Virus record (IMG/VR): IMGVR_UViG_2648501299_000003
Coordinates: 1 to 19,113 of that record
DNA from: a virus
Taxonomy: Duplodnaviria; Heunggongvirae; Uroviricota; Caudoviricetes
DNA length: 19,113 bases
Strand: one strand, 5' to 3'
Positions 193 to 19,113 of this stretch are shown one piece after another (position 1 is the stretch's first letter; every line of letters begins with the position of its first letter). The position numbers and the translations under genes are program-made. The notes beneath the pieces are model-generated. The model was not told the origin of the DNA. It saw nothing but the letters and a program-made list of their open reading frames with translations, and made no database searches.

Positions 193-271
193 CTTAATTC
201 TCCAGGCAAAAATAAACCGCCATACAGCGGCTCTATCAGATATGAACAGGCCTCATCGAGTGTGAGGCGGG

Positions 272-616: not shown

Positions 617-627
617 TTCTTGTCTCC

Positions 628-654: not shown

Positions 655-716
655 CAGATAAAAGAAATCCCCGCGAGTGCGATGATTGTTATTCACCTTT
701 GACGGCAAGTTGCAGG

Positions 717-2461: not shown

Positions 2462-2484
2462 AATGGAATCCTTATGCTGCTACT

Positions 2485-3473: not shown

Positions 3474-3483
3474 ATGATTGTTC

Positions 3484-3654: not shown

Positions 3655-3733
3655 GAATATCTCCTTCGTTACCGATTAATTCTTTCATCTGACGAATGAA
3701 TTCTTCGTCTGACCAGTTATCTGTAAAGATCAT
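3563..3733 (-). CDS. small hypothetical protein (56 aa), 3' part overlaps 3484..3654
   Basis: ATG 3733-3731 overlaps the kil stop (ATGA coupling); N-terminal half looks protein-like, C-terminal half is low complexity. Confidence 0.35.
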   Translation of the reverse strand: MIFTDNWSDEEFIRQMKELIGNEGDIHVTCNHSEGEQVTETHVHAAGVNVSPEGRS

Positions 3734-3882
3734 TTCCTGCGATACAACGGAAGGTTGATAGCTGATTTCATCGCTTTATTTGCTTCAAGCCACATTTTGG
3801 AATCACCAATAAATCTGGCTATTACTGCTTTGTTCTGTGCAGCACGAAGCATCTGGTGATTAATGGCTATTTCATTGCGCAT
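3730..3882 (-). CDS. kil: Kil-like host cell division inhibitor (50 aa)
   Basis: MRNEIAINHQMLRAAQNKAVIARFIGDSKMW resembles recalled lambda Kil core (...IATFIGDEKMF...); GAGG 7 nt upstream of ATG 3882; sits immediately downstream of cIII as in lambda. Confidence 0.55.
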   Translation of the reverse strand: MRNEIAINHQMLRAAQNKAVIARFIGDSKMWLEANKAMKSAINLPLYRRK

Positions 3883-3998
3883 AATAAGACCTCAACTCTT
3901 TTCCATCCGTCACGTAATTTACGGGTGATTCGTTCAAGTAAAGATTCATTTAGTTGGAAGGCACCCATGCGAGCGCCTCCCGCGATTGCGTAAATCAT
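3867..3998 (-). CDS. cIII: CIII-like FtsH inhibitor (43 aa)
   Basis: MIYAIAGG...ESLLERITRKLRDGWKR matches the recalled conserved core of lambda CIII; AAGGA 7 nt upstream of ATG 3998. Confidence 0.75.
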   Translation of the reverse strand: MIYAIAGGARMGAFQLNESLLERITRKLRDGWKRVEVLLCAMK

Positions 3999-4022
3999 GG
4001 GTGGTTCCTTATGTTGGTTTTA

Positions 4023-4991: not shown

Positions 4992-5003
4992 ATATCCTCC
5001 ATC

Positions 5004-5032
5004 AAAAAAATTGCCCTCACACTGGAGGGCAA
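5004..5032 (-). terminator. intrinsic terminator inside the leftward operon (tL-like)
   Basis: Minus-strand hairpin, 8-bp stem 5011-5018/5025-5032 (UUGCCCUC-CAGUGU-GAGGGCAA), followed by UUUUUUU (5010-5004), then the RBS of the 4023..4991 gene. Confidence 0.65.
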
Positions 5033-5166
5033 AGAAGATTTCCAATAATCAGAACAAGTCGGCTCCTGTTTAGTTACGAGCGACATTGCTCCGTGTATTC
5101 ACTCGTTGGAATGAATACACAGTGCAGTGTTTATTCTGTTGTTTATGCCAAAAATAAAGGCCACCA

Positions 5167-5418
5167 TCAGGCAGCCTTGTTGTAAATGTTGCAGGTATCA
5201 AGTAAGTAATTAGATGGAGCGCCATAAACTATGAATTCATCGTTTGTCGGGTCCATCTCCATCTCTTGGCCTATTGCCATTCTTGCGTCAGTGTCATCAG
5301 AGGCGAAGCATAAAACAGCCCACGCACCCATTGTTTTAAAAAGAACTGCAATTGGCTGTGGTTTTACTGAATTTGCGTTAGCGCGAAAATCACAAATCGC
5401 ACTTTCATGAAACTCCAT
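5167..5418 (-). CDS. hypothetical protein (83 aa)
   Basis: ATG 5418-5416 with GAGG 6 nt upstream. Confidence 0.55.
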   Translation of the reverse strand: MEFHESAICDFRANANSVKPQPIAVLFKTMGAWAVLCFASDDTDARMAIGQEMEMDPTNDEFIVYGAPSNYLLDTCNIYNKAA

Positions 5419-5480
5419 ATCTCACCTCAAATAAGTGGTTTGCTGCCAAAACAATGAACCATCCGGAAATTCCAGATAGT

Positions 5481-5705
5481 TCATAATTCACCCTTCAATA
5501 CTTCCAACTTACTAATCGCCGATAGATATCCGCGCTGATAGGGCATCATCATTCCTTCGAGCTTGCCACTTCTTAACTCCTCCCTGAGCAATTGTATTGC
5601 TTGATCAATAACCTCTGCCTTAGCGTCCTTTATGGCTTGCTTGCGGGGCTTTGCTTTCTGCTTTGGCAGATTTCTCAAGCATGATGGAATGTATGTCTTA
5701 TTCAT
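5481..5705 (-). CDS. hypothetical protein (74 aa) immediately downstream of N
   Basis: ATG 5705-5703 with GAGG 6 nt upstream, 3 nt after the N stop; track ORF starts one codon earlier at GTG. Confidence 0.55.
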   Translation of the reverse strand: MNKTYIPSCLRNLPKQKAKPRKQAIKDAKAEVIDQAIQLLREELRSGKLEGMMMPYQRGYLSAISKLEVLKGEL

Positions 5706-5708
5706 CAC

Positions 5709-6092
5709 TTACCTCGCCGTCAGTTGTTTGGATTTCCGGTAGCCTGCCGCGTAAAGAGCTACATTTGGAAGACACACACCAGTTTCTGGTTGCTTATGTC
5801 CAAACTCATTCGCGTACACAATGGCCGCTCTCTCCAGATTGCGTCTGTATTCTTTCTGTTGCCAGATCACGTCCTGTGCCATGAACTTAATTGGCTTAGC
5901 GTCTTCTATGCGCTCAGGCGTTTCGTGAGTACCTTTAGCCTGAATCTGCGCTCTGCTTAGAGTAGGGCGGTGTAATACTTCTGAACTTATTGCTTCTTCG
6001 CGGGCCAGTACGCCGTTAGCTAATGCCTTTGCCTTTAAACGCTCACGACGACGAGAACGTGAATTGCCTTTGAACTGAGTTCTGCGTGTCAT
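5709..6092 (-). CDS. N: N-type transcription antitermination protein, P22 gp24-like (127 aa)
   Basis: Arginine-rich motif near N-terminus (GNSRSRRRERLKAKALANG) and C-terminus LPNVALYAAGYRKSKQLTAR resembling recalled P22-type N; ATG 6092-6090 with AGGAGG 5 nt upstream; boxB lies upstream on the same strand. Confidence 0.75.
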   Translation of the reverse strand: MTRRTQFKGNSRSRRRERLKAKALANGVLAREEAISSEVLHRPTLSRAQIQAKGTHETPERIEDAKPIKFMAQDVIWQQKEYRRNLERAAIVYANEFGHKQPETGVCLPNVALYAAGYRKSKQLTAR

Positions 6093-6220
6093 ATAGACCT
6101 CCTGGTGAACTTTGGCGGTGAATACAGCCGGGCGACTAACTCCGGTCGCGTAATCATTGCAAAGCGCCTCCGCCGAGAAGATTAGCTTCTGCATTCACCC
6201 CAAAGTTCACTTTGGTTATT

Positions 6221-6235
6221 GCGCTTTGTCAGCGC
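6221..6235 (-). promoter_or_regulatory. nutL boxB hairpin (P22 type)
   Basis: Minus-strand reads GCGCTGACAAAGCGC, a 5-bp stem with GACAA pentaloop, identical to the recalled P22 boxB; about 60-75 nt downstream of the predicted pL start; no canonical boxA (CGCTCTT) found nearby. Confidence 0.7.
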
Positions 6236-6303
6236 CGTAGATTCATATTCGAATCGTTGTATATTCACCGCCCTGGTGAGTAGTGCGTCCTGCTGATGGC
6301 TAA

Positions 6304-6332
6304 ATAGTACGATGTGTACTTTATTGAGTCAA
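6304..6332 (-). promoter_or_regulatory. pL-like early leftward promoter
   Basis: Minus-strand -35 TTGACT (6332-6327), 17-bp spacer, -10 TACTAT (6309-6304); overlapped by candidate operator dyads. Confidence 0.5.
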
Positions 6333-6378
6333 TACAAAATGTTCTAAATATGATTAGTTTTTTATAACGTTTTGTATT
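6306..6378. promoter_or_regulatory. candidate OL operators (three 15-bp dyads)
   Basis: AGTACgatgtGTACT (6306-6320, perfect dyad), AATACaaaatGTTCT (6331-6345), ATAACgttttGTATT (6364-6378); share half-site ANTAC-N5-GTANT with the OR candidates. Confidence 0.5.
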
Positions 6379-6509
6379 TTATGGAGTTATATTTTGCATG
6401 GTTGTGTGGCTTGGGAGGTGATCGAGAGATCTGAATTGCTATGTTTAGTGAGTTGTATCTATTAATTTTCAAATAAATACAATTGGTTATGTGTTTTTTT
6501 GGGGGGGTT

Positions 6510-6541
6510 AGGCAAAGAAAACCCGGCGCTGAGGCCGGGTT
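6510..6541 (-). terminator. intrinsic terminator ending the cI-cargo (pRM-side) transcription unit
   Basis: Hairpin with 8-bp stem 6520-6527/6534-6541 (AACCCGGC-CUCAGC-GCCGGGUU) followed on the minus strand by UUCUUUGCC. Confidence 0.6.
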
Positions 6542-6550
6542 ATGTAGGCA

Positions 6551-6652
6551 TTATGCGGCTTTTTTGGTGTGTGCTGACGAGCGAGCCAGAATCTCGTTAA
6601 TGAGAGATCTCAGGGTCATTGCATCTTTGTGCAGAGTGGACATGGTTTTCAT
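6551..6652 (-). CDS. small ORF (33 aa) between the cargo gene and the terminator
   Basis: ATG 6652-6650 with GAGG 7 nt upstream; MKTMSTLHKDAMTLRSLINEILARSSAHTKKAA; stop is 9 nt upstream of the terminator hairpin; below track cutoff. Confidence 0.4.
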   Translation of the reverse strand: MKTMSTLHKDAMTLRSLINEILARSSAHTKKAA

Positions 6653-6721
6653 TGCGTTTCCTCGGTTTATTTTATGGTACTAGCCTAGTTCAAATAGACT
6701 ATATGAAATCTTGATTTACTA

Positions 6722-7102
6722 TTAAGGCCATTGGGTTGGTGGAAGATCGTGGGTTTTTATCTGCGTATTTGCTTCCACACATTTATCATAGTCTAATTTC
6801 TCTACAGCAAGCAATAGTGATTCAGCATACATCAATCCTTGTTTGATGTTCATAACATTTATGCTTGCACTTGCGGCATCCATATCCTTTGCTGTCTCTA
6901 CCATGTGCTCAAAGCTTTGAGCAATAGAGTCAACACCGTTTTTCATCCTTGTAAACACTAATTTTAGCTCATCAAGGCTTGGATTCGTTAGATCATACAT
7001 CCCATGCATTCCATGGGCTTCGAATAACTCTGACAACGATCTAAGGGCGAAGTTCACAGAATCAATAACTTGGTCGTACTTTTTCTTATCAAGATCATTC
7101 AT
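6722..7102 (-). CDS. immunity-region cargo protein of unknown function (126 aa), rexAB position
   Basis: ORF directly downstream of cI on the same strand in a visibly AT-rich segment; no recognisable motif or TM segment; weak SD. Confidence 0.6.
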   Translation of the reverse strand: MNDLDKKKYDQVIDSVNFALRSLSELFEAHGMHGMYDLTNPSLDELKLVFTRMKNGVDSIAQSFEHMVETAKDMDAASASINVMNIKQGLMYAESLLLAVEKLDYDKCVEANTQIKTHDLPPTQWP

Positions 7103-7168
7103 TAAAAATATAACCTTTTAACTATTTGATATTGCTGCATTTATATCAATATATGCATTTCACATATA

Positions 7169-7828
7169 TCACCCAAACGTCTCTTCAGGCCATTGACTGG
7201 CGATAACCTTGCCTACAATGTTGCAGTTCTCATTGCATGGGATGATTGGAAACTGCGGATTAAGTGGTTGCAAAAACACTTGCCCACTATCTTTGATCAG
7301 TTTTTTGAATGTGAATTCATCGCCACCAAGTCTAGCGATACAGAAATCACCAGGATCAACAGGTTGTTCAGGGTCAACCAAGATTAACATTCCATCAGGA
7401 AAGCTTGGTTTCGATCCTGCCGGAGCTGTCATTGAGTTGCCTTCAACCTCAAGCCAGAATGCAGAATCACTGGCTTTTTTAGTTGTGCTTACCCATTTCT
7501 CCGCATCACCTTTGGTAAAGGTTCTAAGCTCAGGCGAGAACATCCCGGCCTGAACATGAGAAAAAACAGGGTACTCATATTGTTTTTTAACGGGGGCTGA
7601 TGAGTATTCGCCAACAGGTGAAAATGTACCGTCGTGGTTGAATGAGACGTTATTAATACCAAGGTACTTAAACACCACACCAATCTCGTCAAGAGATGGA
7701 TGACGAGATCCGCGCAACCAGTGGCCAATTCCACCCTGCGTCATACCAAGCTCTTCAGCTAACTTCTCTTGAGTTATGCTGAGTTCTTTCATTCTGGATC
7801 TAGCCAGTTCATACCATTTCATTTTCAT
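7169..7828 (-). CDS. cI: CI-type prophage repressor (HTH N-domain + LexA/S24-like autocleavage domain, about 219 aa)
   Basis: C-terminal about 135 aa ([22 protein letters not shown]...GNSMTAP...FTFKKL...[11 protein letters not shown]) nearly identical to recalled lambda CI; N-terminal HTH domain different; start at ATG 7828 (MKMKW) or 7822, upstream TTG-initiated track extension unlikely. Confidence 0.85.
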
Positions 7829-7837
7829 ACCCTCATT

Positions 7838-7912
7838 ATTACGCTCCGTACTAAAACCATCCATGCACAAGATGTATTTTTTCGATTGCATTCCAAAAGT
7901 ACATATCGTATT
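7838..7912. promoter_or_regulatory. candidate OR operators flanking divergent pRM/pR
   Basis: ATTACgctccGTACT (7838-7852) and AGTACatatcGTATT (7898-7912), plus a weaker middle site TGCACaagatGTATT (7864-7878); same half-site family as OL. Confidence 0.5.
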
Positions 7913-7914
7913 AT
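7886..7914 (+). promoter_or_regulatory. pR-like early rightward promoter
   Basis: -35 TTGCAT (7886-7891), 17-bp spacer, -10 TATTAT (7909-7914); overlapped by the 7898-7912 operator; cro RBS GGAGG at 7933-7937. Confidence 0.5.
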
Positions 7915-7940
7915 TGTTTCATGGTTACTATGGAGGGCAT

Positions 7941-8156
7941 ATGAGCAACCTACGAAAATATCGAGAGTCACTGAAGATCTCTCAAACAACCCTTGCTAAG
8001 GCTGTTGGATGCACACAGGGTGCTATCGGACATTGGGAATCTGGTCGTCGCTTCCCAGACCTTAAAACATGCCGTGCTCTTGTTGCGTGCCTAAACAAGT
8101 TCGGCGCAAAAGTCAGTCTTGATGACGTGTTCCCGCCGGAACACCAATCCGCTTAA
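7941..8156 (+). CDS. cro: Cro-like HTH (XRE-family) regulator (71 aa)
   Basis: ATG 7941 with GGAGG 4 nt upstream, divergent from cI; HTH-like QTTLAKAVGCTQGAIGHWESG; track ORF begins at an upstream alternative start. Confidence 0.8.
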   Translation: MSNLRKYRESLKISQTTLAKAVGCTQGAIGHWESGRRFPDLKTCRALVACLNKFGAKVSLDDVFPPEHQSA

Positions 8157-8167
8157 TAAGCGGATCC

Positions 8168-8212
8168 ACTCTTTTCACAATGGACATTCGTCCTACGTCG
8201 CTGACAAAGCGA
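8168..8212 (+). promoter_or_regulatory. nutR: boxA-like element plus boxB hairpin
   Basis: boxB TCGCTGACAAAGCGA at 8198-8212 (5-bp stem, GACAA loop, same loop as nutL); upstream CACTCTTTTCACAA (8168-8181) resembles boxA but the spacer is longer than in lambda. Confidence 0.55.
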
Positions 8213-8296
8213 GCCCCAAGATATCTGACCAACTAAGGCCATATGCGTTTCAACGCATACCTTTCAACTAACTATTCACTATTGGAAAATTAACAA

Positions 8297-8596
8297 ATGA
8301 CACAAGCAAGTTACAGCAAGCCAACACAGCGAGAAATTGATCGCGCAGAAACAGATTTACTCATCAACCTGTCAACGCTTACCCAGCGCGGTCTGGCAAA
8401 GATGATTGGCTGTCATGAATCGAAGATAAGCAGAACGGACTGGAGATTTATTGCTTCGGTCTTGTGTGCTTTCGGAATGGCATCAGACATCAGTCCGATT
8501 AGCAGGGCTTTTAAGTATGCGCTTGATGAAATCACCAATAAAAAACGCCCGGTGTGCAAGACCGAGCGTTCTGAACAAATCCAGATGGAGTTCTGA
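8297..8596 (+). CDS. cII: CII transcriptional activator (99 aa)
   Basis: C-terminus ...TNKKRPVCKTERSEQIQMEF almost identical to recalled lambda CII; gene begins with GCAA-N6-GCAA (pRE site on the opposite strand). Confidence 0.85.
   Translation: MTQASYSKPTQREIDRAETDLLINLSTLTQRGLAKMIGCHESKISRTDWRFIASVLCAFGMASDISPISRAFKYALDEITNKKRPVCKTERSEQIQMEF
8306..8319 (-). promoter_or_regulatory. pRE-type CII binding site (TTGC-N6-TTGC)
   Basis: Plus strand GCAAgttacaGCAA inside the 5' end of cII, the same arrangement as lambda pRE. Confidence 0.55.
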
Positions 8597-8628
8597 GGTC
8601 ATTACTGGATCAATCCACAGGAGTCATT

Positions 8629-8790
8629 ATGACAAAACGTCGTAAGAAATACCAGGAAAAAGAAGAGATTCGACACCCTGATTCACCTGAGGGATTAGTG
8701 GTAGCCGCAGCAAATAACAGGGCGTTCGCAGAGCGCCTTGTTGGTGTTTACAGACTAGCCAAAGCAGGAGTGAAACATGGGCGTCGTTAA
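8629..8790 (+). CDS. small basic ORF (53 aa) between cII and O
   Basis: ATG 8629 with AGGAG 5 nt upstream; overlaps the O start by 14 nt; below track cutoff. Confidence 0.35.
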   Translation: MTKRRKKYQEKEEIRHPDSPEGLVVAAANNRAFAERLVGVYRLAKAGVKHGRR

Positions 8791-9667
8791 GTTAGCTGAT
8801 TACAGGCATAACCCTGTACAACATCAGGAGGCATCCAGTATGGGGTATGTCTCTATACACCGCCAGTTTATGGACAGCAGGCTCTATAAGGACTCTCAGG
8901 CAGTACATCTTTGGCTTCACTTAATCCTCAAGGCTAATCACGAATCTACTGTCGTCAATACGGATATCGGTCCGATAACTGTTGATCGCGGTCAGATGAT
9001 AACTGGACGCCCGTCGCTGGTCAGAGAAACATTCATCCCCGACAACAAAGTTCGGAGCTTATTGCGGACTTTTGAGTCGAAAGGGATGCTTAATATTTGC
9101 TCGATGGGGAAGAAATTTAGCCTGTTTACAATCGTTAAATATGACGATTTTCAGGCAAAAAATTGTCCAACGGTTGTCCAACGGTTGTCCAACGCAAACA
9201 GCAGTAATGGCGCGGCTCTCAGCGGAGATTGTCCAACGGTTGTCCAACGGTTGTCCATAAACAATAATATAAATAATATCTCTAATACTGACGTATTAGA
9301 GAGTGCCACAGCAGACAAAAAGTCTGACAAGAAAAAACCTTCCGTTAGCTGTCAGGATGTTGTCGATGCTTACCACGAAATCCTTCCTGAAGCGCCAAGA
9401 ATCCGCGCACTGAATGACAAGCGTAAAAACCAGATCCGAACGTTCTGGCGCAAAGCCGGAGTGATAACCCGCCAGCTTGACGGGCATGGGTTCACGATGC
9501 AGGACTGGAGAAATTATTTGAGCTACGTAGGCGAAAATTGCCGATGGATGTTCGAAGAGCGCCCAAACCATCAACGCGGAACCGTCTGGCACAAAAAGGG
9601 ATTTGATTTCCTGCTTAACGACAATACCTACCTGAAAGTTCGTGAGGGTGAACACGATGACCGATAA
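8777..9667 (+). CDS. replication initiator, lambda O-like by position and internal iterons (296 aa)
   Basis: ATG 8777 with AGGAG 6 nt upstream; iteron clusters and an AT-rich tract inside the gene, as in lambda O/ori. Confidence 0.7.
   Translation: MGVVKLADYRHNPVQHQEASSMGYVSIHRQFMDSRLYKDSQAVHLWLHLILKANHESTVVNTDIGPITVDRGQMITGRPSLVRETFIPDNKVRSLLRTFESKGMLNICSMGKKFSLFTIVKYDDFQAKNCPTVVQRLSNANSSNGAALSGDCPTVVQRLSINNNINNISNTDVLESATADKKSDKKKPSVSCQDVVDAYHEILPEAPRIRALNDKRKNQIRTFWRKAGVITRQLDGHGFTMQDWRNYLSYVGENCRWMFEERPNHQRGTVWHKKGFDFLLNDNTYLKVREGEHDDR
9162..9258. repeat. origin iterons: two clusters of 11-bp TTGTCCAACGG repeats
   Basis: Three copies at 9163-9195 and about 2.7 copies at 9229-9258; a 30-bp unit (ATTGTCCAACGGTTGTCCAACGGTTGTCCA) is exactly duplicated 66 bp apart; AT-rich tract follows at 9259-9300. 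Confidence 0.75.
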
Positions 9668-11093
9668 TTTTTATGCGCCGCCCCATAGCATCGAGGCAGA
9701 GCAGGCGGTGATTGGTGGATTGCTTCTGGATGATGACAGCAGTGAGCGCGTCCAGAAAGTTCTGGCGATGCTGAAGCCTGATTCATTTTACAGCCGACCA
9801 CACAAAATCATTTTCGAAGAAATAACCAGAATGCACCGGGAGCAAAAGCCAGTAGATGGCCTGACGCTTTTCGATGAACTGGAGCGTAAATCGTTAACGG
9901 CGTCTGTTGGCGGTTTTGCTTATATCGCTGAGATCGCAAAGAACACGCCAAGCGCCGCAAACATCGTTGCCTATGCAATGCAGGTTCGCGAAACCGCAAT
10001 GGAACGCTACGCCATCAACCGCATGACTGAAGCGACGGAATTGCTATATTCCCGCAACGGAATGACTGCAACGCAGAAGTACGAAGCTATTCAGGCGATT
10101 TTCACGCAACTGACAGACCATGCAAAAACCGGATCGCGTCGCGGCCTTCGCTCATTTGGTGAGGTCATGGAAGACTGGGTTAGCGACCTTGAGAAGCGAT
10201 TTGACCCGTCAGGCGAACAACGAGGAATGAGCACAGGGATCCAATCGCTGGACAGGATGCTGTCACCGAAAGGTCTGGTGAAAGGCTCTCTGTTTGTCAT
10301 TGGCGCTCGCCCTAAGATGGGGAAAACGACGCTATACAGCCAGATGGCAATCAACTGCGCAGTGCATGAGAAAAAGCCCGCTCTGATGTTCAGCCTTGAA
10401 ATGCCAGGTGACCAGATACTGGAAAAACTGGTAGGGCAGAAGTCAGGTATTAACCCAAATATTTTTTACCTTCCGGCGACAAATGACGCTGATGACGGTT
10501 ATCAGGGTGATTACGATGGTGACTTCAACAGGGCGATCGAAACAGCCAATCGCTTGAGTGAAATCGACCTGCTTTACATCGACGACACGCCGGGATTATC
10601 TCTGGCTCAAATCGTCAGCGAAAGCCGTCGAATCAAGCGAGAAAAAGGATGTGTTGGCATGATTCTGGTCGATTACCTGACACTAATGACTGCTGAGAAG
10701 GCCGATCGCAACGACCTTGCTTACGGCATGATCACCAAAGGACTGAAGAACCTTGCCAAAGAGCTTGATTGCGTTGTTGTGCTTCTGACACAGCTTAACC
10801 GCGCACTGGAAAGCCGAACCAATAAACGCCCATTACCAAGTGACTCACGAGATACAGGGCAGATTGAACAGGATTGCGATTATTGGGTGGGGATCCATCG
10901 TGAAGGCGCTTTTGATGACAGTGTTCCACCTGGTGAAACTGAACTAATCCTTCGTCTCAATCGTCATGGCAATACCGGCACGGTGTATTGCATTCAGGCA
11001 AATGGCGCTATTTATGACACAGACCAACAGTCTGCTGAAATGCGCCGCCGTGAACGCGAGGAACCGCAGTCCAAGAAGAAAGGAGGATTCTGA
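9657..11093 (+). CDS. DnaB-family replicative helicase (about 478 aa)
   Basis: DnaB N-domain signature (HSIEAEQAVIGGLLL) and Walker A GARPKMGKTT; ATG 9657 with GAGGG about 8 nt upstream, overlapping the O stop; track start 9642 is GTG. Confidence 0.85.
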   Translation: MTDNFYAPPHSIEAEQAVIGGLLLDDDSSERVQKVLAMLKPDSFYSRPHKIIFEEITRMHREQKPVDGLTLFDELERKSLTASVGGFAYIAEIAKNTPSAANIVAYAMQVRETAMERYAINRMTEATELLYSRNGMTATQKYEAIQAIFTQLTDHAKTGSRRGLRSFGEVMEDWVSDLEKRFDPSGEQRGMSTGIQSLDRMLSPKGLVKGSLFVIGARPKMGKTTLYSQMAINCAVHEKKPALMFSLEMPGDQILEKLVGQKSGINPNIFYLPATNDADDGYQGDYDGDFNRAIETANRLSEIDLLYIDDTPGLSLAQIVSESRRIKREKGCVGMILVDYLTLMTAEKADRNDLAYGMITKGLKNLAKELDCVVVLLTQLNRALESRTNKRPLPSDSRDTGQIEQDCDYWVGIHREGAFDDSVPPGETELILRLNRHGNTGTVYCIQANGAIYDTDQQSAEMRRREREEPQSKKKGGF

Positions 11094-11197
11094 TGACCAT
11101 CTACATCACTGAGCTAATAGCAGGGTTATCGTTACTAATGGTTCTTACTGTATATATTATTAAGTATATTCTTTATGCGAATAAAAAAACTAATTGA
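11093..11197 (+). CDS. small hydrophobic single-TM peptide (34 aa)
   Basis: ATG 11093 overlapping the helicase stop (TGATG) with AGGAGG 6 nt upstream; MTIYITELIAGLSLLMVLTVYIIKYILYANKKTN; overlaps the start of the next gene; below track cutoff. Confidence 0.4.
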   Translation: MTIYITELIAGLSLLMVLTVYIIKYILYANKKTN

Positions 11198-11786
11198 TCA
11201 CGATGAGCTTCTGTCAACATTATCATATGACTCAGAAACAGGAATATTTAAATGGCTAAAAACAAATTCAGTAGTAAGAGTAAAAGGTAGTATTGCTGGA
11301 GGTGTTAGTGGTGGTTATATATGCATTAGCATAAATAATGTTTTGTATTATGCGCATAGACTTGCTTGGTTCTATGTATACAAAAAATGGCCTCCTAAGT
11401 TTATTGATCATGTAAATGGGAACAGACTTGACAATAGGATTTCAAATCTAAGACTGGCAACAGAAGAGCAGAATGCAAGAAACATTGTAGGGAATAGATT
11501 AAACACATCCGGTGCAATTGGAGTGTCTTGGTATAAGCCAACTGGCAGGTGGAAGTCTTATGTTGGTTATAAAAATAAGACAATATCGTTAGGGTATTTC
11601 GATAGCAAAGAAGATGCAGCATTCATAGCAGCACTAGCAAGAAAGAAACTATATGGAACTTATGCGAGTAAAGCACTTAATTGCGAGCATGAGCTTTTAT
11701 CTCAATTTAATAATGATGAGGATAAACTTGCGGAATATCTTAAGGAAAAATCTAAAAGGACTCGAAAGCGTGTTAAAAACAGATAA
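11175..11786 (+). CDS. HNH endonuclease with C-terminal AP2 DNA-binding domain (homing-endonuclease-like, 203 aa)
   Basis: HNH motif FIDHVNGNRLDNRISNLRLAT and AP2-like GVSWYKPTGRWKSYVGYKNKTISLGYFDSKEDAAFIAALARKKLYG; gene lies in a strongly AT-rich segment. Confidence 0.8.
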   Translation: MRIKKLIDHDELLSTLSYDSETGIFKWLKTNSVVRVKGSIAGGVSGGYICISINNVLYYAHRLAWFYVYKKWPPKFIDHVNGNRLDNRISNLRLATEEQNARNIVGNRLNTSGAIGVSWYKPTGRWKSYVGYKNKTISLGYFDSKEDAAFIAALARKKLYGTYASKALNCEHELLSQFNNDEDKLAEYLKEKSKRTRKRVKNR

Positions 11787-11820
11787 AGGCCTGCTGGTAA
11801 TCGCAGGCCTTTTTATTTTG
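11785..11820 (+). terminator. intrinsic terminator after the HNH-AP2 gene
   Basis: Stem GGCCTGC (11788-11794) / GCAGGCC (11803-11809), extended by AAA/TTT, then TTTTTATTTT to 11819; starts at the HNH stop codon. Confidence 0.7.
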
Positions 11821-11846
11821 GGGAGAGTAATTGGAGGCTTTAAGAA

Positions 11847-12074
11847 ATGAGTTCGATGACTGAGCTTGTCCGCGCCGACTTTCAGGAGAACATTGGTCGT
11901 GCAAAGCGGTACTGGTCTGCTTCCAGACTTCCGACTGGCGAGAGACAGAAAAACGCCCCTAAGCCACGTATCTATCCGCGTGACCGCGTTCTTCGCCGGT
12001 TGTTCAGACTCAACAATGAGTTTCAGCGCAACAGAATTATCCAGCAATTAGATTTGATGACTGATGATGAATGA
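11847..12074 (+). CDS. hypothetical nin-region protein (75 aa)
   Basis: ATG 11847 with GGAGG 9 nt upstream; overlaps the NinB start. Confidence 0.5.
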   Translation: MSSMTELVRADFQENIGRAKRYWSASRLPTGERQKNAPKPRIYPRDRVLRRLFRLNNEFQRNRIIQQLDLMTDDE

Positions 12075-12489
12075 TTTCATTCTGCACGAAACCAATAAAT
12101 CACAATTCTGGTTAGTTCTGAAACAAATCCTCTCTACTGGCAAACGCTGGCGAATCAAAATATCTGAGTACCGTGAAAAGCGTACATTGTCACAAAACAA
12201 TCTGCTGTGGATGTGGAATGCAGAAATAGCCGCACAGTTATCTGCTGCTTCTGCTGAAAACTTCACGCCTGAAGAGGTTCATGAGTGGCTGAAAGATATA
12301 TTTTGTCCGGCTAAAAGGGTGACGATTTTTAATATTACACGATGCGTTAAATCAACACGTCAGCTTGATATTGGAGATATGCACAAATATCTGACCGATA
12401 TTGACCAGTGGGCGCATCAGAAGGGATTACGACTAACCATTCCTGATAATTGCGAGTACCGGGATCTAAAGGAGAGGCAAGTAGAGTGA
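12064..12489 (+). CDS. ninB: NinB-like recombination protein (141 aa)
   Basis: RTLSQNNLLWMW resembles the recalled NinB SLDQN..LW motif; position at the start of the nin region. Confidence 0.55.
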   Translation: MMNDFILHETNKSQFWLVLKQILSTGKRWRIKISEYREKRTLSQNNLLWMWNAEIAAQLSAASAENFTPEEVHEWLKDIFCPAKRVTIFNITRCVKSTRQLDIGDMHKYLTDIDQWAHQKGLRLTIPDNCEYRDLKERQVE

Positions 12490-13013
12490 CTATCAAATCA
12501 AATACGCCAGCGTCAGATAGGTATCGGCTTATTGAGGATTATCTGTATTTAGACGGAGATACAGTCAGATACAAAAAGGACTCGCTAAAACACCCCAACC
12601 ACAGCCACCGGGCAGGAGATGAAATTAAAACATCGATAAATGGATCTGGGTATAGACAGGTGTGTTTTGCAGGCATTCAGATGTTTGTTCACGTAGTTGT
12701 TTTTGCGCTGCACAACAAAAGAATGCCATTGAAAAATATTGACCATATTAACGGAAACAGGCTGGACAATTCCCCAAAAAATCTTAGGGAGGCAAGCCGG
12801 ATAGCAAACAGCCGAAATCAGAAAACTAAGTGCAATAGCCGTTCTGGAATAAAAAATGTTTTATGGAACAAGCAAAAAAATAAATGGGCCGTTCAAGTGC
12901 GCACAGATTTTGGCCGGTTGTATTTTGGGCTCTATGAAGATCTTGAACTTGCTTGTTTGGTTGCCAGTGAGGCTATCAACAAATATCACGGACAATATGC
13001 GAAGGTTGTATGA
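12486..13013 (+). CDS. second HNH endonuclease with AP2 domain (about 175 aa, GTG start)
   Basis: HNH motif NIDHINGNRLDNSPKNLR and AP2-like GIKNVLWNKQKNKWAVQVRTDFGRLYFGLYEDLELA; GTG 12486 overlapping the NinB stop (GTGA) with GGAGAGG 8 nt upstream; track start 12450 is TTG. Confidence 0.7.
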   Translation: MTIKSNTPASDRYRLIEDYLYLDGDTVRYKKDSLKHPNHSHRAGDEIKTSINGSGYRQVCFAGIQMFVHVVVFALHNKRMPLKNIDHINGNRLDNSPKNLREASRIANSRNQKTKCNSRSGIKNVLWNKQKNKWAVQVRTDFGRLYFGLYEDLELACLVASEAINKYHGQYAKVV

Positions 13014-13540
13014 TTAAGCATAAATCAGAAACACCAAAAGAAGTTAGAGACTGCTGGCAAACTCCGCTTTGGCTTTTTGATGCACTGGATATTGAGTTTG
13101 GATTCTGGCTGGATTCGGCAGCGAGCGACAAAAATGCTCTGTGCGCTCACTGGCTAACTGAGGCCGACGACGCGCTCAATTCTGAGTGGGTAAGCCACGG
13201 TGCAATCTGGAATAACCCACCGTACAGCAATATCAGGCCGTGGGTGGAAAAAGCCGCTGAGCAGTGCATACAACAGCGACAGACGGTAGTTATGCTTGTG
13301 CCAGAGGATATGTCTGTCGGATGGTTCAGCAAGGCTCTGGAGAGTGTCGACGAAGTTCGCATTATCACTGATGGACGGATTAATTTTATCGAACCATCGA
13401 CAGGGCTGGAGAAGAAGGGAAACAGCAAAGGTTCCATGCTGCTGATTTGGCGACCGTTCATCAGTCCTCGACGGATGTTTACTACCGTATCCAAAGCGGC
13501 ATTGATGACGATCGGGCAGGGCGTCAGGAGGGCGGCATGA
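13010..13540 (+). CDS. phage-type DNA N6-adenine methyltransferase (Dam-like, 176 aa)
   Basis: NPPY catalytic motif (IWNNPPYS) and WQTP N-terminal pattern; ATG overlaps the HNH stop (ATGA). Confidence 0.7.
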
Positions 13541-13719
13541 GGCGACAGCGACGAAGTATCACCGACATCATCTGCGAAAACTGCAAATACCTTCCAACGA
13601 AGCGCTCCAGAAATAAACGCAAGCCAATCCCAAAAGAATCTGACGTAAAAACCTTCAATTACACGGCTCACCTGTGGGATATCCGGTGGCTAAGACATCG
13701 TGCGAGGAATACAAGGTGA
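13537..13719 (+). CDS. ninE: NinE (60 aa)
   Basis: [23 protein letters not shown]... matches recalled lambda NinE; ATG overlaps the Dam stop with GGAGGG upstream; lies inside the longer track ORF 13447..13719. Confidence 0.75.
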
Positions 13720-13886
13720 TTGACCCAAATCGAAGTTACGAACAAGAAAGCGTCGAGCGGGCTTTAACGTGCGCTAACTGCGGTCAAAAGCTGCATTTTC
13801 TGGAAGTTCACGTGTGCTCCGATTGCTGCGCAGAACTGATGAGCGATCCGAATAGCTCAATGTACGAGGAAGAAGACGATGGCTAA
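13716..13886 (+). CDS. ninF: NinF (about 56 aa, GTG start; alternative ATG 13674)
   Basis: [46 protein letters not shown] matches recalled lambda NinF; GTG 13716 overlaps the NinE stop with GAGG upstream. Confidence 0.7.
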
Positions 13887-14490
13887 ACCAGCGCGAAGAC
13901 GATGTAAAAACGATGAATGTCGGGAATGGTTTCACCCTGCATTCGCTAATCAGTGGTGGTGCTCTCCAGAGTGTGGAACAAAGATAGCACTCGAACGACG
14001 AAGTAAAGAACGCGAAAAAGCGGAAAAAGCAGCAGAGAAGAAACTACGACGAGAGGAGCAGAAACAGAAAGATAAACTGAAGATTCGAAAACTCGCCTTA
14101 AAGCCCCGCAGTTACTGGATTAAACAAGCCCAACAAGCCGTAAACGCCTTCATCAGAGAAAGAGACCGCGACTTACCATGTATCTCGTGCGGAACGCTCA
14201 CGTCTGCTCAGTGGGATGCCGGACATTACCGGACAACTGCTGCGGCACCTCAACTCCGATTTGATGAACGCAATATTCACAAGCAATGCGTGGTGTGCAA
14301 CCAGCATAAAAGCGGAAATCTCGTTCCGTATCGCGTCGAACTGATTAACCGAATCGGGCAGGAAGCAGTAGACGAAATCGAATCAAACCATAACCGCCAT
14401 CGCTGGACTGTCGAAGAGTGCAGGGCCATCAAGGCAGAGTACCAACAGAAACTCAAAGACCTGCGAAACAGCAGAAGTGAGGCCGCATGA
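13879..14490 (+). CDS. ninG: NinG (Rap-like recombination protein, 203 aa)
   Basis: Near identity to recalled lambda NinG ([10 protein letters not shown]...WWCSPECG...[30 protein letters not shown]...). Confidence 0.85.
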
Positions 14491-14693
14491 CGTTCTCAGT
14501 AAAAACCATTCCAGACATGCTCGTTGAAGCATACGGAAACCAGACAGAAGTAGCACGCAGACTGAAATGTAGTCGCTGTACGGTCAGAAAATACGTTGAT
14601 GATAAAGACGGGAAAATGCACGCCATCGTCAACGACGTTCTCATGGTTCATCGCGGATGGAGTGAAAGAGATGCGCTATTACGAAAAAATTGA
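14487..14693 (+). CDS. ninH: NinH (68 aa)
   Basis: [30 protein letters not shown]... matches recalled lambda NinH; ATGA overlap with NinG. Confidence 0.8.
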
Positions 14694-15336
14694 TGGCAGC
14701 AAATACCGAAATATTTGGGTAGTTGGCGATCTGCACGGATGCTACACGAACCTGATGAAAAAACTGGAGACGATAGGATTCGACACCAAAAAAGACCTGC
14801 TTATCTCGGTTGGCGATTTGGTCGATCGCGGTACAGAGAACGTCGAATGCCTGGAATTAATCACATTCCCCTGGTTCAGAGCTGTACGTGGAAACCATGA
14901 GCAAATGATGATTGATGGCTTATCAGAGCGTGGAAACGTTAATCACTGGCTGCTTAATGGCGGTGGCTGGTTCTTTAATCTCGATTACGACAAAGAAATT
15001 CTGGCTAAAGCTCTTGCCCATAAAGCAGATGAACTTCCGTTAATCATCGAACTGGTGAGCAAAGATAAAAAATATGTCATCTGCCACGCCGATTATCCTT
15101 GTGACGAATACGAGTTTGGAAAGCCAGTTGATCATCAGCAGGTAATCTGGAACCGCGAACGAATCAGCAACTCACAAGACTGGATCGTGAAAGAAATCAA
15201 AGGCGCGGACACGTTCATCTTTGGTCATACGCCAGCAGTGAAACCACTCAAATTTGCCAACCAGATGTATATCGATACTGGCGCAGTGTTCTGCGGAAAT
15301 CTCACATTGATTCAGGTACAGGGAGACGGCGCATGA
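14671..15336 (+). CDS. ninI: NinI serine/threonine protein phosphatase (lambda PPase-like, 221 aa)
   Basis: [25 protein letters not shown]...GNHE... metallophosphatase motifs; start taken at ATG 14671 (track ORF begins at 14596). Confidence 0.85.
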
Positions 15337-15956
15337 GACTCGAAAGCGTGGCTAAATTTCATTCGCCAAAAAGCCCGATGATGAGCGACTCACCACGGGC
15401 CACGGCTTCTGACTCTCTTTCCGGTACTGATGTGATGGCTGCTATGGGGATGGCGCAATCACAAGCCGGATTCGGTATGGCTGCATTTTGCGGTAAGCAC
15501 GAACTCAGCCAGAACGACAAACAAAAGGCTATCAACTATCTGATGCAGTTTGCACACAAGGTATCGGGGAAATACCGTGGCGTGGCAAAGCTTGAAGGAA
15601 ATACTAAGGCAAAGGTACTGCAAGTGCTCGCAACATTCGCTTATGCGGATTATTGCCGTAGTGCCGCGACGCCGGGGGCAAGATGCAGAGATTGCCACGG
15701 TACAGGCCGTGCGGTTGATATAGCAAAAACAGAGCAGTGGGGGAGAGTTGTTGAGAAAGAGTGCGGAAGATGCAAAGGCGTAGGCTATTCCAGGATGCCA
15801 GCAAGCGCCGCATATCGCGCTGTAACGATGCTAATCCCAAACCTTACCCAACCCACCTGGTCACGCACTGTTAAGCCGCTGTATGACGCTCTGGTGGTGC
15901 AATGCCACAAAGAAGAGTCAATCGCAGACAACATTTTGAATGCGGTCACACGTTAG
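15333..15956 (+). CDS. Q: Q late-gene antiterminator (lambda-type, 207 aa)
   Basis: Essentially identical to recalled lambda Q over its length ([24 protein letters not shown]...[12 protein letters not shown]...). Confidence 0.9.
15620..15633 (-). promoter_or_regulatory. candidate paQ CII site (TTGC-N6-TTGC, antisense within Q)
   Basis: Plus strand GCAAgtgctcGCAA inside Q; lambda carries a CII-dependent antisense promoter within Q. Confidence 0.4.
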
Positions 15957-15998
15957 CGGCATGATTGCCACGGATGGCAACATCTTTACGGCATGATA

Positions 15999-16027
15999 TT
16001 GACTTTTTGAATAAAGTTGGGTAAATT
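15999..16027 (+). promoter_or_regulatory. pR' late promoter (qut region just downstream)
   Basis: -35 TTGACT (15999-16004), 17-bp spacer, -10 TAAATT (16022-16027), directly downstream of Q. Confidence 0.7.
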
Positions 16028-16167
16028 TGACCCAACGATGGGTTAATTCGCTCGTTGTGGTAGTGAGATGAAAAGAGGCGGCGCTTACTACCGATTCCGC
16101 CTAGTTGGTCACTTCGACGTATCGTCTGGAACTCCAACCATCGCAGGCAGAGAGGTCTGCAAAATGC

Positions 16168-16227
16168 AATCCCGAAACAGTTCGCAGGTAATAGTTAGAG
16201 CCTGCATAACGGTTTCGGGATTTTTTA
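16168..16227 (+). terminator. tR'-like terminator ending the short pR' leader (6S RNA equivalent)
   Basis: AATCCCGAAAC (16168-16178) pairs with GTTTCGGGATT (16212-16222) around an inner GCAGG/CCTGC hairpin, then TTTTTT (16221-16226); about 190 nt from the predicted pR' start. Confidence 0.7.
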
Positions 16228-16632
16228 TATCTGCACAACAGGTAAGAGCATTGAGTCGATAATCGTGAAGAGTCGGAGAGCCTGGTTAGCCAGTGCTCTT
16301 TCCGTTGTGCTGAATTAAGCGAATACCGGAAGCAGAACCGGATCACCAAATGCGTACAGGCGTCATCGCCGCCCAGCAACAGCACAACCCAAACTGAGCC
16401 GTAGCCACTGGCTATCCTGAACTCATCAGTGATAGTTACGCTGCGGCCTTCTATACATGACCTTCGTGAAAGCGGGTGGCAAGAGGTTGCGCTAACAACC
16501 TCCTGCCGTTTTGCCCGTGCATATCGGTCACGAACAAATCTGATTACTAAACACAGTAGCCTGGATTTGTTCTATCAGTAATCGACCTTATTCCTAAATA
16601 AATAGAGCAAATCCCCTTATTGGGGGTAAGAC

Positions 16633-16956
16633 ATGAAGATGCCAGAAAAAAATGACCTGTTAGCCGCCATTCTCGCGGCAAAGGAACAAGGCATCGGGGC
16701 AATCCTTGCGTTTGCAATGGCGTACCTTCGCGGCAGATATAATGGCGGTGCGTTTACAAAAACAGTAATCGACGCAACGATGTGCGCCATTATCGCCTGG
16801 TTCATTCGTGACCTTCTCGACTTCGCTGGACTAAGTAGCAATCTCGCTTATATAACGAGCGTGTTCATCGGCTACATCGGTACTGACTCGATTGGTTCGC
16901 TTATCAAACGCTTCGCTGCTAAAAAAGCCGGAGTAGAAGATGGTGGGAATCAATAA
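16633..16956 (+). CDS. S: class I holin S with dual-start motif (S107 antiholin / S105 holin)
   Basis: [39 protein letters not shown]... near-identical to recalled lambda S; ATG at 16633 and 16639 (Met-Lys-Met). Confidence 0.9.
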
Positions 16957-17416
16957 TCAACGTAAGGCGTTCCTCGATATGCTGGCATGGTCAGAGGGAA
17001 CTGATAACGGACGTCAGAAAACCAGAAATCATGGTTATGACGTCATTGTAGGCGGAGAGCTATTCACTGATTACTCAGATCACCCTCGCAAACTTGTCAC
17101 GCTAAACCCCAAACTCAAATCAACAGCCGCCGGACGTTACCAGCTTCTTTCACGTTGGTGGGATGCATACCGTAAGCAGCTTGGCCTGAAAGACTTCTCT
17201 CCGAAAAGCCAGGACGCTGTGGCATTGCAACAGATTAAAGAGCGTGGCGCTTTGCCGATGATTGATCGCGGTGATATCCGTCAGGCAATCGACCGTTGCA
17301 GCAATATCTGGGCTTCGTTGCCCGGGGCTGGTTATGGCCAGTTCGAGCATAAGGCTGACAGCCTGATTGCAAAATTCAAAGAAGCTGGCGGAACAGTCAG
17401 AGAGATTGAGGTATGA
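16940..17416 (+). CDS. R: endolysin R (lytic transglycosylase, 158 aa)
   Basis: Near identity to recalled lambda R ([46 protein letters not shown]...). Confidence 0.9.
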
Positions 17417-17850
17417 GCAGAGTAACCGCGATTATCTCCGCTCTGGTTATCTGCATCATCGTCTGCCTGTCATGGGCTGTTAATCATTACCGGGATAACG
17501 CCATGACCTACAAAGAGCAGCGCGATAAGGCCACATCCACAATCGCTGACATTCAGAAGCGTCAACGTGATGTAGCAGAACTCGATGCCAGATATACAAA
17601 GGAACTTGCTGATGCTAACGCGACTATCGAAAGTCTCCGTGCTGATGTTTCTGCTGGGCGTAAGCGCCTGCAAGTCGCCGCCACCTGTGCAAAGTCAACG
17701 ACCGGAGCCAGCAGCATGGGCGATGGAGAAAGCCCAAGACTTACAGCAGATGCTGAACTCAATTATTACCGTCTCCGAAGTGGAATCGACAGGATAACCG
17801 CGCAGGTTAACTACTTGCAGGAATACATCAGGACGCAATGCCTTCGATGA
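17413..17850 (+). CDS. Rz: Rz i-spanin (145 aa)
   Basis: N-terminal TM segment [23 protein letters not shown], coiled-coil remainder, lambda Rz-like; ATGA overlap with R. Confidence 0.85.
17612..17797 (+). CDS. Rz1: Rz1 o-spanin lipoprotein embedded in the +1 frame of Rz (about 61 aa)
   Basis: Lipobox LLGVSAC followed by proline-rich [13 protein letters not shown]; AAGGA 8 nt upstream of ATG 17612 (alternative ATG 17585). Confidence 0.7.
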
Positions 17851-17990
17851 TAGCGATAATTTTACTCATCATCCTTCACATCTGGCTCTGTAGACAGGGT
17901 GGTGATCACTTCTGGAGTGAATCCAGATTAAACATCTCATTGCTGATGCTTGAAGTTGAGCATCTGGCGCGCGGTAAGGGGCTGCGTTGA
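17847..17990 (+). CDS. small hydrophobic ORF (47 aa) coupled to the Rz stop
   Basis: ATG 17847 overlaps the Rz stop (ATGA); N-terminus [15 protein letters not shown] is TM-like; below track cutoff. Confidence 0.3.
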
Positions 17991-18228
17991 GATAAGAGCC
18001 AGTTCATTACAAAGCCTATCTACGGGTGGGCTTGATAATGAAACCGGAATTTATTCTGGGCAACCAGTTACGGCAGTACAGCGAAACAACCCAAGCCAGT
18101 AAGTGGGGAAATAACACTGGCAGCCACTGAAAGATGAACCTCCTGCCTTATGGCAAAAAAGATTCTTTGTGGTTGCGGACTGATGGAAAGACATCCTAAT
18201 CAAGCAACTACTCTACAGGGTCATAATT

Positions 18229-18600
18229 ATGAACGACCAGCAAATTGAAAAAGAAATCGCAGCCAAGGGTAAGACGGCGGCTCGCGTTACTCCTGAACAC
18301 ATTGCCAGCATAATCGCCAGCGAACATTACTTTACGGCCGCTGATGGTGCTCGCTTTGCTCATGTGCAGAGAAGCGAAACATACAGCGTAAAAATCCCAG
18401 ACCAGCCTGACGAGCTGGAGCTGCTGACATTCTGCGTTCTGGTGCTGAAGAATGGCTTTACGGTCACCGGGGAAAGCGCCTGCGCCAGCCCAGAGAACTT
18501 CGATGAAGAAATCGGGCGCAAGATTGCTCGCCAGAATGCTGTAAACAAAATCTGGATGCTCGAAGGTTACTTGCTGAAGCAGAAGCTAAGCGAACAGTAG
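18229..18600 (+). CDS. hypothetical phage protein (123 aa), possibly Gp49/Sf6 gp66-like
   Basis: ORF between the lysis cassette and the HNH gene; family assignment is a weak recollection only. Confidence 0.5.
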   Translation: MNDQQIEKEIAAKGKTAARVTPEHIASIIASEHYFTAADGARFAHVQRSETYSVKIPDQPDELELLTFCVLVLKNGFTVTGESACASPENFDEEIGRKIARQNAVNKIWMLEGYLLKQKLSEQ

Positions 18601-18762
18601 TTATTACAAAAGCCATTCCCTACAGAGTGGCTTTGATAATGGCTTATACCCTACACGGGATAACTTAACTGATATCCCTTTTAACGGATAAACGGAGCCA
18701 ATAATGGCAGAGAATGTCGGCATTATGGCAGTGAAATTTGGATAAATCGGAGATTAGTACAT

Positions 18763-19113
18763 ATGCCGCCACGAATCCCAAAAGCCTGCCGTGTTCGCGG
18801 TTGCCGCCATACCACCACAGATCCGTCAGGCTATTGTGAAAGCCACAAAAGCGAAGGCTGGAAGCAATACAAGCCAGGACAATCCCGTCATCAGCGCGGT
18901 TATGGTTCGAAGTGGGATGTTATCCGTGAACGTGTGCTGAAGCGTGACAAAGGCCTGTGCCAGTTGTGCCTGCGTGCCGGTGTGGTACGTGAGGCGAAAA
19001 CCGTTGACCACATCATCCCTAAAGCGCATGGCGGCACTGATGCCGACTGTAATCTGCAGAGTCTGTGCTGGCCGTGTCATAAGGCGAAGACGGCCCGTGA
19101 ACGGTTGAAGTGA
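18763..19113 (+). CDS. HNH endonuclease (terminase-associated type, 116 aa)
   Basis: Cys-rich N-terminus (CRVRGCRH...C) and HNH motif DHIIPKAHGG...NLQSLCWPCHKAKT; ATG 18763, stop at the window end; position matches HNH genes that precede terminase in HK97-like packaging modules. Confidence 0.8.
   Translation: MPPRIPKACRVRGCRHTTTDPSGYCESHKSEGWKQYKPGQSRHQRGYGSKWDVIRERVLKRDKGLCQLCLRAGVVREAKTVDHIIPKAHGGTDADCNLQSLCWPCHKAKTARERLK

Follow-up and report, generated by a model that had tools for sequence, protein, structure and literature searches.

An HNH-AP2 gene of probable homing endonuclease type lodged in the first codons of dam in a lambdoid prophage

The free-standing homing endonuclease genes (HEGs) of phage T4, the seg and mob genes associated with marker exclusion, target the HEG-less allele of a neighboring gene, co-convert its flanks, and owe their immunity to differences at the target. 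Among HNH enzymes, I-HmuI is a strand-specific nicking enzyme. Proteins that combine an HNH nuclease with an AP2 domain are a described homing endonuclease family of phages, cyanobacteria, and protists, as set out in passages of PMC10448857 that cite Magnani 2004. Gene 31 of phage epsilon34 joins the N terminus of eaE, in frame, to an HNH homing endonuclease (PMC2629481), and the “hidden HNH” of ShiLan is inserted in an actinophage DNA methylase gene, with a patchy distribution and no fixed functional link (PMC11855218). Here we analyze a 19,113-nucleotide (nt) stretch of viral DNA (IMG/VR record IMGVR_UViG_2648501299_000003, positions 1 to 19,113), the whole of which we call the window and whose coordinates are used throughout. 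It comes from the nin (early-right) region of a lambdoid prophage and contains two genes of the HNH-AP2 type, HNH1 and HNH2, the second of which lies between ninB and the methyltransferase gene dam. We consider it likely that HNH2 is a free-standing HNH-AP2 gene of the homing endonuclease type that has lodged in the first codons of the lambdoid-prophage dam gene.

The arrangement of HNH2 can be read by comparison with phage Dewey, in which the same ninB allele (424/426 nt, 99.5%) is joined straight to dam with no HNH gene. The 5' end of Dewey dam reads GTGACTATCAAATCAAATACGCCAGC-ACACGACAAG-GACTGCTGG, and the same 26 nt, GTGACTATCAAATCAAATACGCCAGC, open the HNH2 open reading frame (ORF) in the window. 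These 26 nt also begin dam in other loci free of HNH2, namely those of phage 86 and VT2-Sakai and locus L017. Homology between the window and these dam genes stops after ...ACGCCAGC and resumes at GACTGCTGG (position 13049). The insertion point splits the sequence between ...CGCCAGC and ACACGAC..., and the dam start on its 3' side is recoded. This replacement 5' end, here called alt, is very different from the standard one, and the remainder of dam is 98% identical to that of Dewey. The alignment of empty and occupied alleles indicates that the interposed DNA (Table 1) is an insertion after codon 9 of dam, rather than between two genes, and that both proteins have chimeric N termini. It indicates further that the HNH2 frame now begins at the start codon of dam itself, behind the ribosome-binding region of dam. 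By using these signals, HNH2 would inherit dam's translational coupling to ninB, and because the alt dam ATG overlaps the HNH2 stop codon, dam would still be translated by coupling.

The same anatomy recurs wherever occupied loci were compared. The junction is identical in all 10 of them (the window, L003 to L006, L014, and L018 to L021), and the same left junction stands beside three unrelated ninB alleles: the YbcN-type allele (window, L006, and L018), one encoding ...ARWGDRAA (L003, L004, L005, and L019), and one encoding ...QRKGRAA (L020 and L021). HNH2 is therefore present or absent at a single, constant site in alleles that otherwise nearly match, with Dewey and others empty, and the occupied allele differs from the empty one at the presumed target, which is both split and recoded.

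A more distant comparison separates the history of the dam start from that of the dam body. A metagenomic contig, L012, encodes a 76%-identical HNH2 ortholog (P0003), which has its own start codon (MTDKSEQKYRLIEDF...) and overlaps by 4 nt the Dam-family gene that directly follows it. The L012 Dam protein, which begins MIKHKSQTPIESRDCW, is 43% identical to the window Dam overall and 81% identical over the first 16 residues. At the nucleotide level, the window and L012 are 74% identical in the HNH body, 79% identical over the 48 nt at the start of dam, alt segment included, and 56% identical in the rest of dam (43% for amino acids). The dam start thus co-diverges with HNH2, and the dam body does not. 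These values indicate that the history of HNH2 is shared by the first ~13 dam codons but not by the dam body, the pattern expected from co-conversion of the flank on transfer into a new dam allele.

We examined the distribution of HNH2 in 5426 complete Escherichia coli genomes. The dam body was found at 2191 places in 1566 of them, with up to 5 dam-bearing prophages per genome, and the HNH2 body was found in 34 genomes, at 41 places that are all on the chromosome, with 98.4 to 100% identity, so that ~98% of E. coli dam places are without HNH2. No record of the phage collection carried HNH2 above 60% amino acid identity or covered at least 80% of positions 11800 to 14500, and a scan of genome contigs with the HNH2 protein gave one distant, uninformative Enterobacter match only.

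Some E. coli loci appear to have lost the gene. The alt dam start occurs without HNH2 in ~6 to 8 E. coli genomes, four of which were examined. In strain E2 (L009), HNH2 is deleted between two CTATCAA repeats; the sequence across the deletion reads ATGACTATCAA followed by CAAATATCACGG..., and a mini-ORF is left. A 23-nt remnant of the HNH2 3' end is fused to ninB in FDAARGOS_944 (L007), a remnant of ~4 nt persists in E308 (L008), and the loss in TW10590 (L010) is clean, with zero trace of HNH2. All four retain the alt dam start and an intact dam. Elsewhere, HNH2 is split by IS100 (L005) or carries a frameshift in the AP2 part (L014), and truncated HNH proteins form clusters P0004 to P0006. An apparent third 5' allele class of E. 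coli dam (204 records, 80 to 90% identity) was set aside; the sole member checked, L017, is the standard allele with an over-extended blastn alignment.

There is also a possible trace of recent movement. Two HNH-bearing prophages that reside together in E. coli Z1323CEC0001 (L020, positions 2727 to 3569, versus L021) are perfectly identical over 843 nt centered on the HNH gene. This block is flanked by 1.8 to 2.9% divergence, and the downstream modules differ. By simple arithmetic, the chance of an 843-nt identical run at 2% divergence is ~4e-8. Such a block would fit a recent conversion event between the two prophages of a cell.

The protein itself has the features of a nuclease. HNH2 matches Pfam HNH_3 with 42.6 bits (cutoff, 24.8), and H69, D86, H87, N99, N108, and N111, which are invariant across an alignment of 49 homologs, are all retained. 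Comparison with the L012 ortholog gave a ratio of nonsynonymous to synonymous substitution rates (dN/dS) of 0.11, a value indicating that the lineage is under long-term purifying selection across the distance from the window to L012. The AP2 part was harder to see: no direct match to Pfam AP2 was found in HNH2, even at E values up to 10, although 17 of the 49 family members match it. The family profile matched the solved AP2 domains of WRI1 (7wq5; E, 2.7e-7) and TEM1 (7et4; E, 4.7e-5) as well as I-HmuI (1u3e). In an AlphaFold model (predicted local distance difference test score, 92.4), the C-terminal part consists of a three-strand sheet (residues 125 to 150) and a helix (residues 153 to 171). 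Foldseek superposed this part on the TEM1 AP2 domain with a root mean square deviation of 1.5 to 1.8 Å (probability, 1.00) and matched WRI1 too, with weak E values against the PDB (0.03 to 0.3) and each match covering one domain; I-HmuI was not recovered in this fold search and was found by the sequence profile alone.

HNH2 also aligns with HNH1 at 33% identity over 129 amino acids (E, 5e-18), and the alignment spans the HNH1 AP2 region. A first-pass annotation, made from the letters of the window, had called HNH2 an HNH-AP2 endonuclease, like HNH1 in architecture and set in a different GC context. The family profile, the alignment with HNH1, and the predicted fold indicate that the HNH-AP2 label is right, by indirect evidence and with no help from a direct Pfam AP2 match. 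The statement on GC is roughly right: the HNH2 body has 41% GC (34% at third codon positions) and HNH1 34.5% (24.5%), with 51% in dam, 50% in the DnaB gene, and 41.5% in the ninB allele of the window.

The neighboring methylase looks ordinary. The window Dam scores 221.5 bits against Pfam Dam, PF05869 (cutoff, 28.1), and its residues 5 to 176 are 97% identical to the VT2-Sakai dam ORF, a likeness that places it with M.EcoVT2Dam and the phage T1-type Dam proteins of PF05869. It differs from VT2-Sakai Dam in its first 13 residues, which are replaced (standard, MTIKSNTPAHDK). The orphan methyltransferase of the VT2-Sakai prophage, named M.EcoVT2Dam, is reported to be GATC specific (PMC6602927), and the window Dam is probably likewise a GATC-specific phage orphan methylase of the ordinary kind. 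PADLOC labeled the dam product an orphan methyltransferase and HNH2 a homing endonuclease and assigned no other defense-system labels. The tie of Dam to HNH2 is best read as the provision of a landing site rather than a partnership with the nuclease, and any anti-restriction role of the phage Dam would be independent of HNH2.

HNH2 is one of several HNH genes in nin regions. In the Stx2 phage 86 (L002, positions 1674 to 2276), an unrelated NUMOD4/I-HmuI-like HNH gene occupies the same ninB-dam junction. The last 9 residues of its product, KARWGDRAA, are the C terminus of lambda-type NinB; this gene thus appears to have captured ninB 3' codons, a mirror image of the capture of the dam start in the window. 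HNH1 is itself a clean presence/absence insertion of ~658 bp (positions 11125 to 11782) when compared with phage Dewey (L001) and E. coli fECg99.1 (L018). It interrupts a small ORF of 30 codons and a terminator-like hairpin (CAGGCCTGCTGGTAATCGCAGGCCTTTTTATTT) that lie between the genes for DnaB and DUF7301. A third HNH gene is found within or after ninF in L003 (positions 4061 to 4776) and L006 (positions 9557 to 10211), with a duplicated NinF fragment annotated on the far side. A signature of the start-capture type is also seen at ninB in phage 86, at ninF in both L003 and L006, and at the small ORF interrupted by HNH1, which suggests that a pattern of inserting and duplicating the end of the host gene recurs through nin regions.

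If HNH2 is indeed a homing-type gene lodged in dam, its spread could proceed as follows. The nin operon would be transcribed after prophage induction or in a mixed infection, and HNH2 would be made. The enzyme would nick or cut the standard dam 5' region, around the point where ...AATACGCCAGC meets ACACGACAAGGACTGCTGG..., in HNH-free lambdoid genomes; by analogy with I-HmuI, which nicks, nicking is plausible for HNH2. Recombinational repair from the HNH-bearing genome would then copy in HNH2 and the adjoining recoded dam start, possibly helped by recombination functions that the phage encodes nearby. Alleles that are occupied, or that were once occupied and are now alt, would be immune, their target being split or recoded.

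A bolder form of this proposal, possible in our view but doubtful, is an induction-triggered gene drive between co-resident lambdoid prophages, in which sister prophages with the standard dam start would be cut there by HNH2 and converted; start-codon capture with a donated N terminus could also be a general rule for HNH genes. If so, these two devices would let HNH genes colonize translationally coupled phage operons without breaking them.

Several points weigh against the homing interpretation, in its plainer or its bolder form. The putative target site and the mode of nicking or cutting are read from the insertion point alone. General recombination shuffles lambdoid modules at gene boundaries and could spread the cassette without a nuclease. 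No HNH-linked haplotype of single-nucleotide polymorphisms (SNPs) was found in the dam body beyond the first ~40 nt, so that any co-conversion tract must be short. The clean alt allele of L010 could be ancestral rather than a former HNH2 site. A gene drive, if there is one, is not sweeping, with HNH2 in 34 genomes only. Finally, the two E. coli haplotypes of HNH2 differ at 3 synonymous and 5 to 7 nonsynonymous positions, and the resulting omega of ~0.5 on few sites leaves recent constraint on HNH2 unproven.

Some of these points are what would be seen if the cassette had entered dam once, by illegitimate recombination, and had since been carried passively by general homologous recombination, with a nuclease that is inactive or irrelevant to its spread. 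Dam-body SNPs are mosaic, nin regions as a whole are highly mosaic with many alternative modules, HNH2 occupies only ~2% of dam places, and several of its copies are broken, besides the omega value just given. We nevertheless regard passive carriage as unlikely. It does not account for the long-term constraint on HNH2 or for the retention of every catalytic residue invariant in the family. In an unrelated phage, the same HNH lineage is found at the 5' end of a dam with only 43% identity, which speaks for site-specific targeting and against a single accident. The identity block in the co-resident prophages is centered exactly on the HNH gene, and two other HNH genes nearby have the same insertion signature.

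Long-term purifying selection would also fit a nuclease or regulator that has been domesticated, that is, an HNH-AP2 protein co-opted to exclude or degrade competing lambdoid phages, or to act as an AP2-type DNA-binding regulator, and kept for the benefit of the phage. HEG domains have been co-opted in phage conflicts (PMC10448857), and the several dam-bearing prophages that can share one E. coli genome would offer possible targets. A beneficial function that had become fixed would predict the reverse of a patchy, low-frequency distribution with repeated decay and loss, and we judge domestication very unlikely.

A functional link between HNH2 and methylation has one hint in the sequence. A GATC lies 20 to 45 nt upstream of the insertion point in both of the unrelated ninB 3' ends (positions 12463 to 12466 in the window and ~20 nt upstream of the dam/HNH start in L003). 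This sharing is probably due to chance, at a coincidence of roughly 4%, and a variant of the homing proposal in which methylation of this GATC by Dam gates cleavage by HNH2 is less likely than the gene drive. Very improbable, too, is a restriction-modification-like or methylation-aware pair, an option raised in the first-pass annotation, in which HNH2 would cut according to the Dam methylation state and Dam would protect phage DNA or license cutting as part of one module: the genes adjoin and are translationally coupled, the two closest HNH lineages (99% and 76%) both lie directly upstream of a Dam-family gene, and the GATC is shared, but nuclease and methylase are not a co-occurring unit (41 versus 2191 places), GATC is already methylated by host Dam and so carries no self/nonself mark in E. 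coli, PADLOC sees an orphan methyltransferase and a homing endonuclease, dam stays intact after HNH loss in at least four loci, an unrelated HNH gene sits at the same junction in phage 86, and HNH2 relatives at or below 51% identity are not found beside a methylase. These relatives (39 to 51% identity) adjoin thioredoxin genes, small phage ORFs, and tail-fiber or holin/lysozyme genes, with a methylase in 0 of the 5 contexts checked; only the 76%-identical ortholog on L012 is methylase linked. A packaging role of the kind known for terminase-associated HNH proteins was rejected, since HNH2 has ninB and dam as its neighbors in the nin region and the terminase gene is >6 kb downstream in the related prophage L006.

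The insertion anatomy, the distribution, and the PADLOC labels instead favor another option that the first-pass annotation had offered, an intron-less homing endonuclease beside an orphan methylase. HNH2 is outside any intron or intein, as judged from its separate ORF, its stop-start overlaps, and the lack of an Rfam intron match. The Rfam scan of positions 11000 to 14000 returned no group I or II intron or other RNA above threshold and only two subthreshold chance matches.

The coordinates given in the first-pass annotation, and the GTGA and ATGA overlaps by which it chained ninB, HNH2, and dam, agree exactly with the sequence (Table 1). The ninB stop codon TGA (positions 12487 to 12489) overlaps the HNH2 start codon GTG at 12486 in a GTGA (positions 12486 to 12489), and the HNH2 stop codon TGA (positions 13011 to 13013) overlaps the dam ATG at 13010 in an ATGA (positions 13010 to 13013). 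Overlaps of this kind run through the operon, since dam and ninE are joined by ATGA as well (positions 13537 to 13540) and DUF7301/ninB and ninF/ninG likewise overlap; the chaining is therefore no special trait of the ninB-HNH2-dam trio. In HNH-bearing loci (L003, positions 2999 to 3526; L006, positions 8499 to 9026; and others), RefSeq/PGAP calls the dam start one codon later, at an ATT that corresponds to position 13013 of the window. The ATG at 13010, which overlaps the HNH2 stop codon, looks more plausible as the dam start.

The first-pass annotation had also described the HNH2-dam pair as replacing NinC/NinD. This fits the position of the genes, but in E. coli E308 (L008, positions 1513 to 3110) the order is ninB, dam, a PAPS-reductase-family gene that is probably of the ninC type, ninD, and ninE. 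With dam and ninD together there, dam is no strict allelic replacement of ninC/ninD. On L012, a C5 DNA methylase gene (PF00145; positions 3447 to 4553) lies between ninE and ninF, giving that nin region two methylases.

Table 1. Features of the HNH2 locus and its surroundings, in window coordinates
Feature	Position	Strand	Basis or remark
DnaB-type helicase	9642-11093		
HNH1, HNH_3+AP2 gene	11175-11786		
DUF7301	11847-12074		
ninB/Orf-family recombination mediator gene, YbcN-type allele	12064-12489	+	phrog_72 NinB/Orf, E 2.7e-34; Pfam NinB weak, E 0.0026
HNH2, predicted HNH-AP2 endonuclease ORF, 175 amino acids	12486-13013	+	Pfam HNH_3, E 4.6e-11; phrog_99, E 1.4e-43
Original start of dam taken over by HNH2: GTG with the ~9 initial codons of dam (V/M-TIKSNTPA), which form the present HNH2 N terminus	12486-12511	+	Identical 26 nt
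CTATCAA direct repeat, left copy	12490-12496	+	Deletion endpoint in E. coli E2 (L009)
Insertion relative to empty standard dam allele, 537 nt in place of 10 nt (ACACGACAAG); contains the HNH body and the substitute 5' end of dam	12512-13048	+	Dewey alignment, flanks 98-99.5% identical
HNH_3 nuclease motif, residues 67-110, predicted beta-beta-alpha-metal core	12684-12815	+	Pfam; I-HmuI profile match; model strands 84-87 and 100-103 plus helix 105-110
Predicted AP2-like DNA-binding domain, residues ~122-171	12849-12998	+	Model strands plus helix; Foldseek; family profile; no direct Pfam match
CTATCAA direct repeat, right copy	12973-12979	+	Deletion endpoint in E. coli E2 (L009)
dam, PF05869 Dam-family N6-adenine methyltransferase gene, 5' end chimeric	13010-13540	+	Pfam Dam, E 7.3e-66
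Replacement (alt) dam 5' end ATGATTAAGCATAAATCAGAAACACCAAAAGAAGTTAGA, 13 residues, 28% GC	13010-13048	+	ATG overlaps HNH2 stop
ninE	13537-13719	+	Pfam NinE, E 6.2e-43; ATGA overlap with dam
ninF, ninG	3' of dam and ninE		

The locus is a reminder that a nuclease gene adjoining a methylase gene is not always a restriction system. It offers a base-pair record of how a selfish nuclease gene may sit inside a coupled operon while the host gene is kept active through a recoded start, and the standard and alt dam starts are a simple allele pair for measuring homing between prophages. The nin regions of Shiga-toxin phages lie just upstream of Q and stx and are hence medically relevant; homing-type nucleases would shape mosaicism there. 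The biology is otherwise as expected for phage HNH genes.

Among known systems, I-HmuI and the HNH_3 phage homing endonucleases have a catalytic core homologous to that of HNH2 (profile E, 3.4e-7). I-HmuI is intron encoded and has NUMOD/helix-turn-helix DNA-binding modules, whereas HNH2 is free-standing with a predicted AP2 module; it is the phage 86 HNH that is the I-HmuI-like one. HNH2 resembles the T4 seg and mob genes in being an intron-less gene of the HEG type between or within genes. The T4 HEGs are of the GIY-YIG or other HNH families and belong to lytic phages, whereas HNH2 resides in a prophage, where its expression would be limited to induction. Closer in domain structure are the free-standing HNH-AP2 HEGs, including the “IPA-HNH” genes of vibriophage ICP1 (PMC10448857), which share with HNH2 an N-terminal HNH and a C-terminal AP2 domain, a small size (~170 amino acids), AT richness, a patchy distribution, and a location next to or within conserved phage genes. 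HNH2 matches canonical Pfam HNH_3 and the IPA-HNH proteins do not; HNH2, a putative nuclease, is found in temperate lambdoid prophages, and its frame continues from the 9 initial codons of the invaded gene. Gene 31 of epsilon34 is similar in that an HNH gene in a P22-like/lambdoid genome continues the reading frame of the invaded gene's N-terminal codons, but it belongs to the early-left operon and to another HNH lineage, and no replacement N terminus is described for its host gene. The ShiLan HNH shares with HNH2 the use of a phage DNA methylase gene as a landing site for a mobile HNH gene, although the methylase family and the hosts differ. The ShiLan gene is contained within the methylase ORF in a different frame, and translation of the methylase runs across it as an in-frame loop, whereas HNH2 splits off the first 9 codons, with the methylase restarting from a donated N terminus. 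A homing-type HNH gene beside an orphan methylase is thus of a kind already known, and what this locus adds is not a new system but a further example with an especially legible insertion scar.

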